Made by a program: the position numbers and the translations under genes. A model generated the notes under the pieces. The model searched no databases and was not told the origin of the DNA. It saw only the letters and a list, made by a program, of their open reading frames with translations. Below, piece after piece: positions 2,095 through 22,180 of a stretch of 24,000 nt of DNA. The DNA comes from Anaerobacillus sp. MEB173 (lineage in GTDB: Bacteria > Bacillota > Bacilli > Bacillales > JBJMAU01). Numbering within the stretch: the stretch's first letter is position 1; every line of letters begins with the position of its first letter. The stretch lies in NCBI RefSeq assembly GCF_052119505.1, contig NZ_JBJMAU010000002.1, positions 123,759 through 147,758 on the forward strand. The letters are read 5' to 3'.

Positions 2095-2159
2095 TACAGT
2101 TGTATCGACACCTATCTCTCTATAAAAGGTTCATAACCTTACTTTTTCATGTCAAAATT

Positions 2160-2712
2160 ATGTACTGAGTGGTCATTTAAAAAGTAAACGCTGCGGCTTA
2201 GGTCCAGTAGGTTTTCCCAAGCGGATACCAAAGTGTCGCCACCTTGGAGGTTTCCCTTTAATTCCACCTTAGCGCTGTCACCAAACGCTAGACTAGATTA
2301 CCACTTAGACCGCACTATAATCCTTTTTAAATGTACAAAGAACAGTCTAGGAGTTTTCCTCAACAGTTCCTACCATTCTCTATCCTCTTTTGCAGAGCAG
2401 ATTTCATATGACTTTAAGCATAATCCCCTCTACTCCACTCAAGGCAGGCTACGCTACCCGTAAGTTCCCTAACTTACAAAGGTAGGTTCATACCCCCTGA
2501 AAGCAACAAAGGCTGCAACAGTAAGGCCTCCGCGGAGCAGGGTCATCGCCCACATGCCATTGTGGATCGCCCTAACTCCTTTACCCCCAGCATCGACCCA
2601 AGCCTGGGCGACTCAAGCCGACACAAGAGACTTCATCGATGTGCCCTTTAGCGGATTTTTAGGCCCGCCTTCAAGAATGGAGAACCGACTAGAATACTGC
2701 ACCACTCATTTT
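2160..2712 (-). ncRNA. ole: OLE (ornate, large, extremophilic) RNA candidate, about 550 nt; ends approximate
   Basis: The 712-nt gap between ispA (stop 2807) and the membrane ORF (start 2094) has no same-strand ORF. It is locally G+C-rich (37/60 G+C in 2521-2580 by hand count) within an AT-rich genome. Many local helices are visible on the minus-strand RNA, for example CCACA-AUGGCA-UGUGG (about 2546-2561) flanked by repeated GGCGAU, CCCUG...CAGGG (about 2496-2542), and a CCCA-GGCU-UGGG hairpin (about 2597-2608). RNA 5' UGAGUGGU (2708..2701) pairs perfectly with 3' ACCACUCA (2173..2166). Genomic context ispA-RNA-oapA-dxs is the hallmark of OLE. Confidence 0.75.
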
Positions 2713-2718
2713 ATCTAG

Positions 2719-2747
2719 ATTATATCACGGTTTTTCAGCCTGCTCAA
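2719..2747 (-). promoter_or_regulatory. Sigma-A type promoter with extended -10, positioned to start the structured RNA
   Basis: Minus strand reads TTGAGC (2747..2742), a 17-nt spacer ending in TG-A, then TATAAT (2724..2719), which gives TGATATAAT. The predicted start near 2712 is 4 nt before the 5' half of the 8-bp closing helix. Confidence 0.45.
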
Positions 2748-2806: not shown

Positions 2807-3700
2807 TTAATGGTCACGTCCTGCAATATAGTCTGTAATGGCTTCTAATGTAGAGTGTTTGATATTGACACTATATAAATATTCTTTTGCTAGCTTAATA
2901 TGCTCATTAAGTTTATTTTTTGCACCTTCCATCGTTAATAATTGTGGATAAGTGCTTTTTTGATTCGAATCATCACTACCTACAGGTTTCCCGATGATCT
3001 CTTGGTCACCTTCAACATCGAGAATATCATCACGGATTTGAAAAGCCAGCCCTACATGCTGAGCAAACTGTTTTAATCGAAAGATTTCCTCGTCACTGGC
3101 CTCTGCAAGAATGGCACCTGCTTCTACTGCATATGTAAGCATATCTCCTGTTTTATGATTGTGAATAAATTCTAGTTCTTCTACCGTTAAATCTCTGTTC
3201 TCACCAAGCATATCTGCCATTTGGCCACCTACCATACCTTCTGGACCAGCGGCACATGCGAGTTTCGCAATTAACTGTAATTTCATATCACTCGTTATAG
3301 AAGGATGCGTTATTGCCGAAATGACTGAAAAGCTAAATGTTAATAAACCATCCCCTGCAAGAATTGCTGTTGCCTCTCCAAATACTTTATGGTTGGTTGG
3401 CTTACCTCTTCTTAAATCATCATCATCCATTGCTGGCAAATCATCATGAATTAAAGAATACGTATGAACCATTTCAAGAGCGCATGCTGTACCTAGTCCT
3501 AATTCATCATCCTTGCCAAACGCTTCAATCGTGGCCAGAAGCAAAACTGGACGAATTCGTTTTCCTCCGGCTTTCAAAGAATAGAGCATAGCTTCTTTCA
3601 AAGGTTCAGGTGTTGCAAGTTCTTCAATATAACTTGGAAGAAGCTTATCAATCTTCATTCTCTTTTCATTTATAAAATCTTCTAATGTTATATTATTCAC
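2807..3700 (-). CDS. ispA: Farnesyl diphosphate synthase ((2E,6E)-farnesyl-PP synthase, polyprenyl synthetase family)
   Basis: 297 aa. First Asp-rich motif [19 protein letters not shown] and second motif FQIRDDILD. Sits downstream of xseB as in B. subtilis (yqiD). The start overlaps the xseB stop by 8 nt. Confidence 0.9.
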
Positions 3701-6203: not shown

Positions 6204-6222
6204 AACAACCACTCCCTTAAAA

Positions 6223-6347
6223 AATTTAGAATTAAGAATTAAGAATTTAGAATTATTAGTATGGGGTTCTTCAATGTAGTTTCTTAATTACGACTTCAGA
6301 GCTATACCGGCAGCCAATTCTACATTATAAATTATAAATTCTAAATT
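6223..6347. repeat. Palindromic heptamer-array element, copy 1 (nusB-folD spacer)
   Basis: Left arm 6223-6254 AATTTAGAATTAAGAATTAAGAATTTAGAATT equals four tandem heptamers TTTAGAA/TTAAGAA/TTAAGAA/TTTAGAA. Right arm 6316-6347 AATTCTACATTATAAATTATAAATTCTAAATT is its imperfect reverse complement (27/32 by hand alignment). A 61-bp core lies between the arms. The architecture matches 11923-12037. Confidence 0.6.
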
Positions 6348-6352
6348 ATTTT

Positions 6353-6985: not shown

Positions 6986-7396
6986 TTATTCTTCGTGTGT
7001 TTCTACTGCTAATTGTTGTTCTGTTGTTTCAAACTGAATTCCAACAACATGGACATTTACTTCAGAAAGTTCAATTGCCGTCATTGTTTTTAATGTTTGA
7101 TAGATATTATTTTGGATCTTCTGTGCAACTTCAGGGATGGCAACACCATAAACCATTACGACGAATACATCGACAGCAATCCCATCGTCCTTAAGATCCA
7201 CCTTGACACCTTTACCGTGATTCTTTCGGCCAAGTCGTTCGACAACACCTGAAGCAAAGTTGCCTCTCATCGTCGCAACTCCCTCAATCTCAGATGCAGC
7301 AATGCCAGCGATGACTTCGATAACTTCTGGTGAAATCTCAACCTTCCCTAGTTCATTTTTGGACTCTTCTAAATCTAAAATGTGATTTTCATTCAT
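6986..7396 (-). CDS. yqhY: Asp23/Gls24-family alkaline-shock / envelope stress protein
   Basis: 136 aa. The motif ISPEVIEVIAGIAASEIEGVA is typical of the Asp23 family. Conserved position between accC and nusB as B. subtilis yqhY. Confidence 0.85.
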   Translation of the reverse strand: MNENHILDLEESKNELGKVEISPEVIEVIAGIAASEIEGVATMRGNFASGVVERLGRKNHGKGVKVDLKDDGIAVDVFVVMVYGVAIPEVAQKIQNNIYQTLKTMTAIELSEVNVHVVGIQFETTEQQLAVETHEE

Positions 7397-10595: not shown

Positions 10596-11267
10596 TTATT
10601 CTTCCCCCTTTAATTTTTTTGGTAATACTGATACGCGGTGAGTTGGGACGTCTAGTACTCTACTGACTGCCTCTACCACCATTGTTTTTACCTGAATGTT
10701 ATCAACTCCTCTAGCAACAACTACAACTCCACGTACTGCTGGTTTTTCTGTTTTTACAATCAGTGGCTTCTCACTGTCACCATTACGAATAATAACTACC
10801 TTTTCATCTCGGGTTACATCTTCTACCTTTCTTTTCCCACCTTCACGATCTGTTTCATCTGTGTTTTGTTTCTTTGTATTTTGATCCTTTTCATACACCT
10901 GCTTTTCTGTCTCTGCTAGATTAATCATCACAGATACGTCAGAAACACCAATGATTTCCTCTAAAACCTCTCTCAGCTGATTTTCATATCGGTGTTCATA
11001 ATCCTCCATTGAATAAGGTTCTGCTTGTGCTTTATTTCCAAAAACTGGTTCACTATCAGGTGATGTGTCGTCTTTGAACACTGGCATAGCAACCTGATTA
11101 GATCCAGATTCATTCGTAAAGAAATTACCTAAAATCATTAGTGCAACACCTATACATAAAACTAATGCCAAATAATGAATTGACTTTATCTTACCTTTAC
11201 CTTCCTCCTTTTTTTGAAATAATTTTGTTAACCATTGTTTATGGTTTTTTTCCTCTTTGTCCATCAC
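10596..11267 (-). CDS. spoIIIAG: Stage III sporulation protein AG
   Basis: 223 aa, single TM. The C-terminal block VRGVVVVARGVDNIQVKTMVVEAVSRVLDVPTHRVSVLPKK is characteristic of SpoIIIAG. Overlaps spoIIIAF by 4 nt. Confidence 0.8.
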   Translation of the reverse strand: MMDKEEKNHKQWLTKLFQKKEEGKGKIKSIHYLALVLCIGVALMILGNFFTNESGSNQVAMPVFKDDTSPDSEPVFGNKAQAEPYSMEDYEHRYENQLREVLEEIIGVSDVSVMINLAETEKQVYEKDQNTKKQNTDETDREGGKRKVEDVTRDEKVVIIRNGDSEKPLIVKTEKPAVRGVVVVARGVDNIQVKTMVVEAVSRVLDVPTHRVSVLPKKLKGEE

Positions 11268-11902
11268 TCATCCCCTCCTTCCAAGGCTAAAGAGATAACC
11301 TCTTTAGGAATTTGCCATTCATTCGCTAAATAAAGTTGGACTTCAGATAGATTTGCTGGCTGTTCAGTTAACTTCTTTGTTTGCAGTTCCTTCTTGGTAT
11401 CAATCATTACAACAGGTATTGCTTCTACTTTAGCTTCTTCCTCGGTCTGCTCAACTTGCTGTTTAACAACAACTTCAATACCTGTGATACTCTTGAGGAA
11501 GTCTTCTTCGTTAGCAAATTCATCAATGGAAATCAGGACTTCTTTTACTTCCAAACCATAATCGTTAACCAGCTCCTCTTCCACTTGTTGTTTCATTTGG
11601 ACAGCCACCTGTTCTGAAATATATGCACGTTGTCCCATTTCTATATCTGTTTTCTTATTTTCAATTAAATTTTCTAGCTGCTCATCAGAAAGATCCTCAT
11701 TCATATTTATTGGTTGAAAGATTGTTTCAGGGCTATGCGAAAATACCGATAATAAAGGTGTTAAAATAACAACAATTAGCATTAAACCAACAACCATTTT
11801 GACATAACGCTGAAAATTAGAGTTCGGAAGGAGTAACTCTAAAACGGTTGCCAGCAGGATAATCAAAATAATATTCGTAACCCAATCCGTAATAAACTGC
11901 AA
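11264..11902 (-). CDS. spoIIIAF: Stage III sporulation protein AF
   Basis: 212 aa, two N-terminal TM segments. N-terminus MQFITDWVTNIILIILLATVLELLLPN is typical of SpoIIIAF. TTG start with SD AAAGGGGGGAG. Position is conserved. Confidence 0.8.
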   Translation of the reverse strand: MQFITDWVTNIILIILLATVLELLLPNSNFQRYVKMVVGLMLIVVILTPLLSVFSHSPETIFQPINMNEDLSDEQLENLIENKKTDIEMGQRAYISEQVAVQMKQQVEEELVNDYGLEVKEVLISIDEFANEEDFLKSITGIEVVVKQQVEQTEEEAKVEAIPVVMIDTKKELQTKKLTEQPANLSEVQLYLANEWQIPKEVISLALEGGDE

Positions 11903-11922
11903 GAAACTCCCCCCTTTCGTTA

Positions 11923-12037
11923 GTTTAGAGTTGAAAGTTTAGAGTTTAGAGTGTTTGATTGTACCTCTTGGGAGACCCAAAACCCCTCATTGAATTTGCT
12001 CGAGATAACTCTAAACTCTACACTCTAAATTCTAAAC
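11923..12037. repeat. Palindromic heptamer-array element, copy 2 (inside the spoIIIA operon, spoIIIAE-spoIIIAF spacer)
   Basis: Left arm 11923-11954 GTTTAGAGTTGAAAGTTTAGAGTTTAGAGTGT equals heptamers TTTAGAG/TTGAAAG/TTTAGAG/TTTAGAG. Right arm 12007-12037 AACTCTAAACTCTACACTCTAAATTCTAAAC is its imperfect reverse complement (about 26/31 by hand). The 52-bp core contains a small TTGGG-AGA-CCCAA hairpin. Confidence 0.6.
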
Positions 12038-12044
12038 TAGCTTT

Positions 12045-13214
12045 TCACCTCACCATCAGCGACAGGTTCCCGGCGGCGATGATGATTGTAATAGCGAGGA
12101 AAAACATTAAGCATACTGTTGCCAGTGCTGCGAAGATGAAAATGACGGCCTTTCCGATTGTTGATAGGCATTCGATAACCGGTCCTCCACCTAGTGGTTG
12201 CAAGACTGCCGCTGCAATATTAAAGATGAGAGCTAACGATAAGACCTTTATTGCCGGAAACGCACAAAGGAGTAAAAGGATAGCAAGACCGGCAATACCA
12301 ACTGTATTTTTCAGTAGTACAGATGCACTCATCACGGTATCAGCCGCATCGGTAAACATTCTCCCGACAACTGGAACAAAATTACCGGTTACAAACTTTG
12401 CCGTTCGTATGGTAATTCCGTCAGCAACAGCGGTTGTTGCTCCTTGAACGGAAATAATGCCCAAAAAGATGGTTAAAAAAATACCTAACGCACCAACTGC
12501 GACATTCCGTAGTAGATTGGCAAGCTTGGTCACTTTATAATGGTCACTTAATATACTTACAATGCTAAGTATTGCTGATAGAAACAATAATGGCATAACA
12601 AAATGCTGGATTAATAACCCACTTGTATTGACCAAAAGGACAATTAACGGATGGAAAAAAGCTACTGATGTCAAACTCCCTATCGAAGCCATTAACGCTA
12701 ACAACAATGGTAATAATGCAATCATAAAATTGATCATATTACTAATCGCCTCTTGCGCGTAGCTAATGGCTACATGGAAGCTGTTTAAGGCAATAATGAT
12801 TAACACCATGTATGTGATCGCATAAGCCACCTTACTAATCGCATGTTGTTCAAAGGCGTTTTGCATTTGCTGCAGTATCATACTGAAAACCGTCAGCAAG
12901 ATTAACGTTCCTAGTAGCTTGCCATTGACGACTAATTCATGAAATAAGTATTTAACGAGTCCGGTCAACCATTCCTTAATTGAAAATTGTTTCTCTCCTT
13001 TAACGAACTCCATAAACGAGCCTTTTTGACTTTCTGGAAGAAAACCTCCATACTCAGTGACAACTTCCTCCCAATACGCTCGGATATCATCTATTCCTAA
13101 TTGTTCTAATTGTCGTTCGATGAGGTTTTCTTGGGGTGATGGTTCCTGTTCAGCATGAACTGAAGCGATTGGTAGAAAGAAAAGAACTAATAAAATGAAA
13201 AACCAATGTTTCAT
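12045..13214 (-). CDS. spoIIIAE: Stage III sporulation protein AE (polytopic membrane protein with signal peptide)
   Basis: 389 aa, with an N-terminal signal-like segment and then many TM helices. Fifth gene of the colinear cluster (B. subtilis AE is 399 aa). Confidence 0.85.
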   Translation of the reverse strand: MKHWFFILLVLFFLPIASVHAEQEPSPQENLIERQLEQLGIDDIRAYWEEVVTEYGGFLPESQKGSFMEFVKGEKQFSIKEWLTGLVKYLFHELVVNGKLLGTLILLTVFSMILQQMQNAFEQHAISKVAYAITYMVLIIIALNSFHVAISYAQEAISNMINFMIALLPLLLALMASIGSLTSVAFFHPLIVLLVNTSGLLIQHFVMPLLFLSAILSIVSILSDHYKVTKLANLLRNVAVGALGIFLTIFLGIISVQGATTAVADGITIRTAKFVTGNFVPVVGRMFTDAADTVMSASVLLKNTVGIAGLAILLLLCAFPAIKVLSLALIFNIAAAVLQPLGGGPVIECLSTIGKAVIFIFAALATVCLMFFLAITIIIAAGNLSLMVR

Positions 13215-15890: not shown

Positions 15891-16322
15891 TTAAATTCCT
15901 TGTGGCAGCTGCTTTTCGACTACACGTTTCAGTAATTCATCATCCTCCATCCACTCTTCAAATGATGAGACATCCGAACAAAATGAACCGACACTATGAC
16001 CATCCTTAAACATCTCAATACACAAAATATCATCTGAATGTGAATAATACTCAACTTCAATGCCATTATCTAATGCTTTACGTTGAACGGATGATGTGGC
16101 GGTTGACAGTATTCGGGCATTATTCTTAACATGACTCTCGGCTAATTGAAGAAGATCTGTTTCATCCCACTCTTTGAAGTGAGAGATATCGGAACAAAAC
16201 GCCCCCATTTCCTTTTGTTTATAAAAAACTTCAACACAAATGATATCATCTGAAAATGAATAGTAACTAACTTCAAGATCCTCTTTTAATTGAACCTTCT
16301 TTTTCTCCAATCTGTCCACCAC
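15891..16322 (-). CDS. Hypothetical protein made of two tandem copies of a roughly 45-aa Cys-containing module
   Basis: Repeat 1 is LEVSYYSFSDDIICVEVFYKQKEMGAFCSDISHFKEWDETDLL. Repeat 2 is IEVEYYSHSDDILCIEMFKDGHSVGSFCSDVSSFEEWMEDDELL. The real start may be TTG at 16310, which has SD AAAGGTGGTG at 6-nt spacing, rather than the GTG at 16322. Bracketed by terminators. Confidence 0.6.
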   Translation of the reverse strand: MVDRLEKKKVQLKEDLEVSYYSFSDDIICVEVFYKQKEMGAFCSDISHFKEWDETDLLQLAESHVKNNARILSTATSSVQRKALDNGIEVEYYSHSDDILCIEMFKDGHSVGSFCSDVSSFEEWMEDDELLKRVVEKQLPQGI

Positions 16323-19617: not shown

Positions 19618-20547
19618 TTATTTAATCCTTCTCAAAGGCGTATTATGATTAAAAAAGTAATTCTCGGTCCTTTGTCGTCCTAATTCAATTAATTCCTCCA
19701 CTTTCTTTTTTGCCAGCGTAAACTCTGTTAATTTAATTTTCTCAACAGGTATAAAAACAATATTCTCAGCAATATCTTTTGAAATGTAGCGATTATCCCT
19801 CGCTTTAAGCATCGTCTCCAGCAACGAACCAACCATCTCGAAAGCATTATCAATTTTATTAGGAATCGCTTCCTCAAGTGAATCACTTAACTTGAATCCT
19901 AATACTGGCCTTTTACTTTTTCCTTTTTTATTTGTAAATAACCACATCGGAAAATTACTTATTACTCCGCCATCAACAATAATACACTGTTGACCTTTTC
20001 CATCATATAATTTCACAGGTTCAAAAAAATATGGAAGACTGCAACTCATTCGTACCGCTTTCGCTACTGAAAATTTATCAGGAATAATACCGTATTTCTC
20101 TAAGTCATCCGGCAAAACAATAAGTTGACCTTTCGTTAAATCTGAAGCAATAATTTTTAAGGAACCTTTTGGCAAATCAGCAAATGTCGTTACACCTTTT
20201 GCTTTGAGCTTTTCTCTTAACCAGCTTTCAAGCTCATCTCCTTTATACAATCCCAGTCTCTTATACACTCGCAGCCATTTAATAAAAGGAAAAGGAAGGA
20301 TTGAATGTTTTGGATCTAGAAACTGCTGTAAATTTGTTTCCGATAAAACTGACGTTAGCTCTTTACTCGTATAACCCGCCTTAATAAGTGAAGCGATTAT
20401 TGCTCCTGCACTCGTCCCTGCTACCCTTTGAAAGGTATATCCCTTATCTTCTAATACTTTTAATGCACCTACAAAAGCAATTGCTTTGACTCCACCACCA
20501 GCAAACACGCCATCAATTTCCATATCTAACCCGCACCCCCTCAACAT
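19618..20547 (-). CDS. yqhO: Patatin-like phospholipase
   Basis: Oxyanion-hole FAGGGVKA, nucleophile elbow GTSAG (GxSxG), and catalytic Asp in IVDGGVISNFP. Adjacent to mntR as in B. subtilis. The ATG at 20523 (MEIDGVFAGGG...) is an alternative start. Confidence 0.85.
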   Translation of the reverse strand: MLRGCGLDMEIDGVFAGGGVKAIAFVGALKVLEDKGYTFQRVAGTSAGAIIASLIKAGYTSKELTSVLSETNLQQFLDPKHSILPFPFIKWLRVYKRLGLYKGDELESWLREKLKAKGVTTFADLPKGSLKIIASDLTKGQLIVLPDDLEKYGIIPDKFSVAKAVRMSCSLPYFFEPVKLYDGKGQQCIIVDGGVISNFPMWLFTNKKGKSKRPVLGFKLSDSLEEAIPNKIDNAFEMVGSLLETMLKARDNRYISKDIAENIVFIPVEKIKLTEFTLAKKKVEELIELGRQRTENYFFNHNTPLRRIK

Positions 20548-21058: not shown

Positions 21059-21096
21059 GGTGTTCCCCCCCAATTTCCCTCTGCCTTTTTACAGTC

Positions 21097-21125
21097 ATCG
21101 CTAAAATGATACTATAATCGTCCAG
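21097..21125 (-). promoter_or_regulatory. Candidate sigma-A promoter for mntR
   Basis: Minus strand reads TTGTCA (21125..21120), a 17-nt spacer, then TATCAT (21102..21097). It lies about 40 nt upstream of the mntR ATG. Confidence 0.4.
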
Positions 21126-21145
21126 TTCTGACAAGGACTCATTGT

Positions 21146-22180
21146 CTATGTGAAGTACTCAATTTTCGATTGCGGGAAGTAATGTTTAATATAACCCTCC
21201 ACTTTCTCTCTTAACTCATCCGCCTCTTCATTTTGATATACATATTTTCCTCGCCCATACTTTCCCCATTTATATTTCCGTTTACTTTCATCCATTTCTA
21301 GTTTCGTCTTCGGATAGCGTTTCTCTATAATCTTTTTTGCTGTTTTTGTAAACCGGTGTTGAATGAGTTCAAACGTTAAATCTTTTATCGCATAACTTGG
21401 TAATGTAGCTTCCAACCGTTCAAAAAGTTCCAAATACCCTTGTTCCCATTCGGAATGGCGGTATAATGGAGCAAGAATGAAGCCTAAAGGATAATTCGCT
21501 TTTGCTACTTTACCAGCGGCCTCTATTCGTTTTTCAAAAGGAGATGTACCAGGTTCAAAATTTTTGATAACATAATTGGAATTCAAACTAAAACGAAATC
21601 TCGTATTACCATTATGCTTTGCATCCAATAAATGATCCACATAATGATATTTTGTTACAAATCGGAGCCTGCCCAGTGTTGTTTCCCCTATAAATTCGAT
21701 TGCTTTTTTAAGGGAATGAGTTAAATGATCTAGTCCTACGATATCTGAGGTACAGGCTGCTTCAAAACGAGTGATTTCAGGCTCCCTTTCCCTGATATAT
21801 TTTTCGGCTTGCTCAAAGATCTCCTCTATATTTACATATGTTCGAATATAAGGTTTATCCCCCATCGTTGTTTGTAAATAACAATAATGACAATGACCCA
21901 TACACCCTGTAGCAAGCGGTATTGCATATTCTGCAGATGGCTTTGATGTATCAAATTTTAATGTTTTGCGAACACCAACAACAAGAGTTGATTTTGCATT
22001 GCGGTACTTTTGATTTTCTGTATCTCCTGGTATATTACGCACCTGGTTATGAGATGTTGTTTCCCTTATCTCGATTCCCATCTTTTCAAACTTATCTTTA
22101 AGTTCTTTACCTAACGGGTACTCTATCGCTCTCGGCTCAATATAAACAAGCTGTGGAATAAATGGCTCCATTCTTTTCAC
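21146..22180 (-). CDS. splB: Spore photoproduct lyase (radical SAM)
   Basis: 344 aa. Radical-SAM cluster motif CMGHCHYCY (CxxxCxxC). Length and N-terminus (FIPQLVYIEPRAIEYPLG) are typical of SplB. SD GAGGTG precedes the ATG. Confidence 0.9.
   Translation of the reverse strand: MKRMEPFIPQLVYIEPRAIEYPLGKELKDKFEKMGIEIRETTSHNQVRNIPGDTENQKYRNAKSTLVVGVRKTLKFDTSKPSAEYAIPLATGCMGHCHYCYLQTTMGDKPYIRTYVNIEEIFEQAEKYIREREPEITRFEAACTSDIVGLDHLTHSLKKAIEFIGETTLGRLRFVTKYHYVDHLLDAKHNGNTRFRFSLNSNYVIKNFEPGTSPFEKRIEAAGKVAKANYPLGFILAPLYRHSEWEQGYLELFERLEATLPSYAIKDLTFELIQHRFTKTAKKIIEKRYPKTKLEMDESKRKYKWGKYGRGKYVYQNEEADELREKVEGYIKHYFPQSKIEYFT

Follow-up and report, generated by a model that had tools for sequence, protein, structure and literature searches.

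A heptamer-array palindrome between spoIIIAE and spoIIIAF of Anaerobacillus sp. MEB173, a probable tolerated copy of a dispersed bacterial repeat

The spoIIIA operon of Anaerobacillus sp. MEB173 carries, in the spacer between spoIIIAE and spoIIIAF, a palindrome built of tandem heptamers, which raises the question of what this element is, how it came to lie between two cistrons of a co-expressed eight-gene operon, and whether it matters there. The analysis was based on a stretch of 24,000 nucleotides (hereafter, the window), in which NCBIfam profiles matched spoIIIAA, AD, AE, AF, AG, nusB, and folD, all located on the minus strand, while the ORFs of spoIIIAB, AC, and AH were named by synteny with the loci of relatives. 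The SpoIIIAE sequence agrees at 100% identity with the Anaerobacillus sp. MEB173 protein. The spoIIIAE gene (NCBIfam; 12045-13214, minus strand) ends with a TGA stop codon (12045-12047), and spoIIIAF (NCBIfam; 11264-11902, minus strand) begins with a TTG start codon (11900-11902), the profile match starting from residue 2. These gene coordinates bear out the spacer of 142 nt (11903-12044) reported in the initial annotation. The element, referred to here as copy 2, sits exactly between the spoIIIAE stop codon and the spoIIIAF Shine-Dalgarno sequence: it starts 5 nt after the former, and the latter (GGGGGGAG; 11907-11914, minus strand) begins 6 nt after the element in the direction of the mRNA.

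Copy 2 spans 119 bp (11921-12039). The repeat search revealed two arms of 32 nt each (11921-11952 and 12008-12039), which are 88% complementary and 55 nt apart, and TRF analysis detected period-7 arrays of 4.4 copies at 11922-11952 and of 4.6 copies at 12007-12038. The left arm, which is the 3' arm on the mRNA (minus strand), consists of TAG, the heptamers TTTAGAG/TTGAAAG/TTTAGAG/TTTAGAG, and a final T, and the right arm of A, CTCTAAA/CTCTACA/CTCTAAA/TTCTAAA, and CTA. On the mRNA, the right arm reads UAG UUUAGAA UUUAGAG UGUAGAG UUUAGAG and closes all three reading frames. The 55-nt core (11953-12007) contains a TTGGG-AGA-CCCAA mini-hairpin (11968-11980), which is paired in both the predicted mRNA and the predicted DNA folds. 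The left (11924-11951) and right (12009-12036) heptamers and the mini-hairpin can be read in the sequence as originally described; the core, previously given as 52 bp, measures 55-57 nt, and the arms pair at 28/32 positions instead of the 26/31 claimed. A double heptamer with up to two mismatches was found six times in the window against 0.39 matches expected, and the four-heptamer arm pattern matched only the four arms of copy 2 and of one further element, copy 1 (0.00 expected in the window). Even with a looser three-heptamer pattern, no convincing third copy was found in the window. The arm pattern of the element, usable with mismatches, is TTTAGARTTNANARTNNANARTKTAGART. The heptamer-array architecture of copy 2 is thereby confirmed as real and non-random.

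Copy 1 (6225-6345) is located between nusB and folD, and has arms at 6225-6252 and 6318-6345 around a 65-nt core. Its arm units (TTTAGAA/TTAAGAA/TTTATAA/TGTAGAA) share the consensus TTTAGAR with those of copy 2, and the arm pattern upholds the view that the latter is a second instance of the nusB-folD architecture. The cores of the two elements, which are all of the copies within the 24-kb window, lack clear homology, a point against their belonging to one dispersed family. Copy 1 (6213-6352) folds weakly (-19.4 kcal/mol, z=-0.24) and is followed by UUUUUU after the stem on the mRNA. A repeat of a different kind, a direct repeat with 75-76% identity and a spacing of 216 nt (15951-16060 and 16167-16276), lies inside a 143-aa ORF (15891-16322) and suggests an internal gene duplication.

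The mRNA strand of copy 2 is predicted to fold with -40.1 kcal/mol (z=-3.45), the antisense strand with -43.5 kcal/mol (z=-5.45), and the element as DNA with -18.7 kcal/mol. A long hairpin between two cistrons, in a family whose copy 1 has a U run after the stem, could divide the spoIIIA operon as an intrinsic terminator or attenuator. However, the stem of copy 2 is AT-rich, and the scan detected no terminator-like site in 11700-12250, in line with the earlier observation that no U tract follows the stem. Moreover, spoIIIAF-AH lie downstream, and the spacer has no sigma-70-like promoter on the coding (minus) strand, the sole sigma-70-like match in the scanned region being on the plus (non-coding) strand and at chance level. 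Termination at this site is thus considered extremely improbable.

The same hairpin may also be regarded as an RNA element selected within spoIIIA, i.e., an mRNA stabiliser, an RNase III/RNase Y site, or a translation insulator that sets the ratio of AA-AE to AF-AH in the mother cell. The stability of the predicted mRNA fold, the exact placement between stop codon and Shine-Dalgarno sequence, and the closure of three frames by the entering arm are all in favor of such a role, as is the fixed orientation of the family cores relative to transcription described below. REP elements, too, are known to stabilise upstream mRNA, as in malE-malF of E. coli. Against it, the antisense strand folds at least as well, and the arms contain one wobble pair and three true mismatches whichever strand is read; as DNA, the palindrome is thus symmetric, and nothing indicates that the transcribed strand is favored. 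Furthermore, no element-specific compensation between the arms was observed: the complementarity of arms from the same element is 0.866 versus 0.910 for arms from different elements of the same genome (p=0.99), so that the pairing appears to follow simply from having one unit arrayed in both orientations. The idea that compensatory changes maintain the stem was rejected on the basis of this comparison and of the similar sense and antisense folds. The arm complementarity fits the descent of the copies from a common source, and argues against copy-by-copy upkeep of the stem. The Rfam search, run at gathering as well as E-value thresholds, gave no family for copy 2 (the best match was a plant miRNA model with 26 bits versus a gathering threshold of 135), nor any match for elements from four other loci (L105, L135, L138, and L021) considered below; over the whole window, only OLE RNA was found.

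The history of the junction weighs further on this reading. The spoIIIA regions of eight relatives were collected via SpoIIIAE homologues, and not by the repeat pattern. In these, the AE-AF spacer is 13 nt in A. arseniciselenatis (L135) and 17 nt in Desertibacillus (L137), both without any content, 56 nt in A. alkalilacustris (L136), where it holds no arrays, and 80 nt in L134, where two heptamer-like remnants are found. Heptamer-array elements occupy the spacers of A. isosaccharinicus (L132; 106 nt) and of a Logan assembly (L138; 115 nt), with units that differ from those of the window (left arm, TTATGAA type; right arm, TGTAGAA type). The two longest spacers, those of Anaerobacillus sp. CMMVII (L131; 183 nt) and of a MAG (L139; 291 nt), each contain a 30-codon ORF for a membrane peptide. 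These hydrophobic peptides, MDKQETMKEVGSTIALSLFVIGLMYFFIFL and MNKVESIKEAGTTIFLSIFVIGLLYFFIHL (L131 11185-11280 and L139 about 11265-11360, respectively), may represent an unannotated small membrane protein of the operon.

Since the junction comprises only 13-17 nt in two relatives, the 142-nt spacer of the window is probably an insertion, and, judged from these sequences, the short junction would most simply be ancestral and have been filled repeatedly. The passive insertion offered as one option in the initial annotation agrees with the 13-nt junction of A. arseniciselenatis and the 17-nt junction of Desertibacillus. The other option, that the element serves to process or stabilise RNA in spoIIIA in particular, finds no backing in conservation: each relative has a different junction, which in two of them is 13-17 nt long and devoid of structure. 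A selected spoIIIA RNA element is, in our judgment, quite unlikely. The window organism is an outlier, the DNA of its spoIIIAE being 70-72% identical to that of the relatives, with 71-72% for the closest of them, versus 76-83% among the relatives themselves; at this distance, the insertion is undatable and exact filled and empty boundaries are not alignable. The nusB-folD junction of the relatives measures 39-145 nt and is free of arrays, which indicates that copy 1 is lineage-specific as well. Farther downstream in the operon region of CMMVII, an IS110-family transposase gene (L131 13379-14611) lies just after spoIIIAH; this intergenic site, which bears an IS110 insertion in CMMVII, holds a partial heptamer array in A. 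arseniciselenatis.

TRF analysis of the relatives' loci uncovered further inverted period-7 arrays at other gene ends. Such arrays follow a 133-aa ORF upstream of a DUF2619 gene (L131, L132, L135, and L138), ispA (L132, L135, and L138), OLE RNA (L135), and, as the partial array just mentioned, spoIIIAH (L135). In A. arseniciselenatis, the elements lie at 7024, 20323-20419, and 21078-21159, with the partial one at 13070; the fetched loci of A. isosaccharinicus and the Logan assembly contain three elements each, and that of CMMVII one. The heptamer varies with the species: TTTTGAG in A. arseniciselenatis, TGTAGAA in A. isosaccharinicus and the Logan assembly, TGTAGAG in CMMVII, and TTTAGAG/TTTAGAA in the window. 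Nine cores could be aligned on the motif GCTTCG(W)AGCA, which is often followed by TTACTAA and is found on the gene-sense strand in all nine. The many elements in relatives and their common core motif speak against the possibility, raised at the outset, that the two copies are the only ones and have no shared origin. Several species have elements at the same intergenic positions, which fits recurrent insertion into permissive sites and, equally, old elements evolving in place.

When the window was searched with a profile of these nine cores (nhmmer), the core of copy 1 (6285-6316, sense strand) was the second-best hit, a weak match (E=0.71), and the core of copy 2 gave no hit. With no detectable kinship to the Anaerobacillus core motif, copy 2 shares the arms and architecture of the family, and its core is either unrelated or decayed.

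The OLE (ornate large extremophilic) RNA found in the window is full-length (2153-2721, minus strand; 487.6 bits) and lies downstream of an ispA-like ORF (2807-3700) and upstream of a 203-aa ORF (1483-2094) that may encode an OLE-associated protein. In A. arseniciselenatis, the OLE RNA gene (L135 20465-21078) is bracketed by the elements at 20323-20419 and 21078-21159, which have the core GCTTCGTAGCA.

The architecture is not confined to this genus. A scan of one genome per species for a complete arm together with the inner heptamer of its partner arm yielded at least 94 loci with the pattern from at least six phyla, and most of these are genuine arm-core-arm elements. The matches listed include Planctomycetota, Bacteroidota (many of them Prevotella), Cyanobacteria (Moorena, Okeania, and Nostocaceae), and Acidobacteria, as well as Gemmatimonadales, Chloroflexia, Elusimicrobia, and Clostridia. 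Among the matches listed, period 7 accounts for 510 TRF rows, and no other period exceeds 121. The inverted period-7 pairs in these loci number 135 and have a median gap of 43 nt, and some of them are made of other heptamers; individual copies range from 3 to more than 8 units. BLAST of copy 2 against plasmids and a search of metagenomes with a 22-mer of its core gave no match.

In Planctomycetota MAG Hs463_bin132, six elements occupy 8 kb (L105 1-8000), each wedged between genes, so that few gene boundaries are without one; the core of one element itself encloses another repeat (L105 433-743). The cores of this genome are conserved and contain GCGCTTCGCGC, followed by a U-rich run on one strand. 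In this and a related genome, the core strand coincides with the sense strand of the flanking genes in 17/19 informative cases, and inside one Planctomycetota locus the orientation of the core flips with gene direction. The same Planctomycetota genomes contain a second inverted heptamer family with the unit AACAATT/AATTGTT (L049 2153-2281, L109 1934-2044, and L116 3167-3284 and 6225-6335). In two phage contigs from IMG/VR, three to four hairpins with TTATGAA/TTAAGAA arms and a core of about 10 nt are found between co-directional genes (L021 623-3908 and L030 138-7901). Arm-only matches in viral contigs were dismissed as background, being mostly single arms in AT-rich DNA.

According to approximate ORF predictions, co-directional genes flank 23 of the 38 elements, convergent genes 11, and divergent genes 4; in background gene pairs of the same loci, the respective shares are 74%, 13%, and 13%. 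As many as 34/38 elements adjoin the 3' end of a gene, and the neighboring genes are a median of 15-18 nt away. By analogy, the placement of the class resembles that of REP elements. Like REP/BIME/REPIN repeats, which are short extragenic palindromes found in many copies at gene 3' ends and inside operons, near stop codons, and co-transcribed as hairpins, copy 2 lies 5 nt after a stop codon, and the REPIN is likewise composed of two inverted units around a spacer. The REP arm, however, is a single imperfect palindrome of 20-40 nt with a GTAG or CGTC head and depends on a RAYT (Y1 transposase) gene, whereas the arms here are 7-nt arrays in which GTAG occurs only within the TGTAGAG variant.

The element may also be compared with bacterial MITEs (Correia, RUP, Nezha, and bcr1), which are 100-150 bp long, non-coding, dispersed, often co-transcribed, and bounded by terminal inverted repeats. 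MITEs also have fixed termini, duplicate their target site, and share their ends with a parent IS. Copy 2, with its small size, 32-nt terminal inverted repeats, and lack of an ORF, agrees with them in size, inverted ends, and absence of coding capacity, and differs in that its arms are internally repetitive and variable in length. The TA that flanks copy 2 on both sides, previously offered as weak evidence of a target duplication, was rejected as such, because it belongs to the inverted repeat itself (TAG...CTA). No target duplication was found in the flanks of 15 copies from two Planctomycetota genomes, and no transposase or autonomous partner was found between distant arm pairs of the fetched loci, which enclose ordinary genes.

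Among the closest described counterparts are the GGGAATC heptamer arrays of Xanthomonas, of which each genome has 70-75 inverted pairs in convergent orientation (Rehm et al. 2015, PMC4692102). Both are inverted tandem heptamer arrays placed close together in intergenic DNA: copy 2 has at least three tandem 7-nt units with a convergent complementary array nearby, and such elements recur, with two in the 24-kb window and up to four per 21 kb in relatives. The Xanthomonas pairs are mostly transcribed and variable in length, 83% of their positions are common to two species, and they are not associated with IS elements (PMC4692102), a point that counts against a mobile-repeat reading. Their unit is G-rich and has been discussed as quadruplex-forming, and no conserved core has been described, whereas the unit here, TTNAGAR, is AT-rich, is unable to adopt G4 structures, and contains a stop codon, and the core of the genus family has its own motif. 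TTTAGAG has no G runs, the G tract being a feature of the Xanthomonas/Nostoc subtype only.

Direct arrays of TAACTGA, which place stops in every frame and were described as being of unknown function, have been reported from Beggiatoaceae, Cyanobacteria, and Bacteroidetes (MacGregor 2015, PMC4679880). These TAACTGA/STRR repeats likewise have a 7-nt unit, are intergenic and often near start or stop codons, and close all frames in one orientation; their phylogenetic distribution is patchy, which is suggestive of horizontal spread. They differ in being nearly all direct (169 direct sets versus one inverted in BOGUAY), without a palindromic partner or core. Arrays of TTTTGAA near start codons have been described in a Nostoc preprint. 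An exact-sequence literature search for TTTAGAGTTTAGAG returned nothing relevant, and the keyword search gave no account of TTNAGAR palindromic elements, nor of such elements in Bacillaceae. Inverted heptamer-array repeats as such have thus been noted before, in Xanthomonas, and the literature searched mentions such arrays only in passing.

The absence of a target duplication and of a transposase among these results suggests another possible origin, in which a short hairpin or spacer was expanded in place by 7-nt slippage on both sides, without any transposition, the lookalikes elsewhere having arisen independently, as slippage by 7 nt is favored in bacteria. Adjacent heptamers within an arm are often identical (mean identity, 0.88), and the middle two units of copy 1 are identical within each arm (TTAAGAA twice, TTTATAA twice) and non-complementary across the arms, which points to local duplication or slippage after arrival. 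Growth in place would also suit the variable number of units between copies, the dominance of period 7 among the matches listed, the occupation of the same sites in several species, and the bacterial excess of heptamer repeats documented in PMC4679880 and PMC4692102, each with reference to Mrazek 2007. It fails to account, however, for cores conserved at unrelated sites within a genome and across Anaerobacillus, which independent slippage does not explain; slippage alone also leaves the inverted presence of the same unit on both sides unexplained, and the 13-17-nt junctions of the two relatives offer no starting hairpin. We therefore regard growth in place as unlikely, though as the strongest competitor of the dispersed-repeat reading.

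The unit itself has a directional property. In Anaerobacillus, 82/87 heptamers contain a stop codon (TAG, TGA, or TAA) when read entering the element versus 28/87 when read leaving it, and all three frames are closed by 14/23 entering arms versus 2/23 leaving arms (random 28-mers, 3%; base-shuffled arms, 23%). The first heptamer supplies the stop codon of the upstream gene in several relatives. Over the TTNAGAR family, the stop is found in the entering arm only for 44 arms and in the leaving arm only for 5; in other heptamer types, the corresponding numbers are 6 and 9. The asymmetry is thus a property of the TTNAGAR family and not of the architecture, and a general rule that the entering arm always carries stops was rejected.

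A regular 7-nt period could also mark repeated binding sites, either for a reader of single-stranded nucleic acid such as a HutP-like protein (UAG at 7-nt intervals) or cold-shock proteins (one per heptamer), or for a DNA-binding protein specific to the inverted arrays. HutP recognises a UAG-N4 period, and in the first-read arm UAG, UGA, or UAA recurs every 7 nt on either strand, as in the 82/87 heptamers of the genus. In addition, TTNAGAR is common to several phyla while the cores differ, and binding of CspB to heptamer repeats is cited in PMC4679880. On the other hand, no candidate protein was identified, the elements stand beside unrelated genes, and other heptamers form the same architecture, so that no single specificity explains the class. 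Accordingly, such a binding-site array is judged very unlikely.

In a bolder interpretation, TTNAGAR palindromes would be a cross-phylum, directional punctuation of gene ends, in which the first-met arm stops three frames, the transcription-oriented core gives a small hairpin (followed by a U-rich run in Planctomycetota), and a trans-acting factor that reads the 7-nt unit builds, spreads, or homogenises the arrays; in that case, the system would be functional and the spoIIIAE-AF copy one of its decayed members. We hold this for improbable, about on a par with a selected spoIIIA RNA element. The orientation of the cores with transcription (17/19 in Planctomycetota and all of the aligned Anaerobacillus cores) nevertheless hints at selection at the RNA level, and in that light "near neutral" may be too weak a description of the class.

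On balance, it is probable, with room for real doubt, that copy 2 is a tolerated copy of a dispersed, non-coding, MITE/REP-like heptamer-array palindrome located in an ancestrally short spacer. Inverted tandem TTNAGAR arrays flanking a short core would have come to occupy the short AE-AF spacer, the element presumably being mobile and having spread. After arrival, its arms would change by gain, loss, and local duplication of heptamers. As copy 2 lacks terminator features, the spoIIIA operon would still be read through, and the polycistronic mRNA would be expected to form an imperfect hairpin of ~31 bp, as the folding model predicts. The tight spacing of the AE and AF cistrons seen in two relatives would be lost, and the hairpin may provide a stable 3' end or a site for a double-strand RNase between the AA-AE and AF-AH parts, with a possible influence on their expression. 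The effects of copy 2 on expression are probably small, the copy being tolerated rather than recruited.

For the spoIIIA operon, this would mean that eight co-expressed genes tolerate a 119-bp hairpin between two cistrons with little consequence, and that the AE-AF junction is an insertion hot spot in this genus. Of broader interest is the class, as the same architecture and the 7-nt unit are met in at least six phyla and in phage contigs, and a census could make heptamer-array palindromes a defined family of bacterial repeats.
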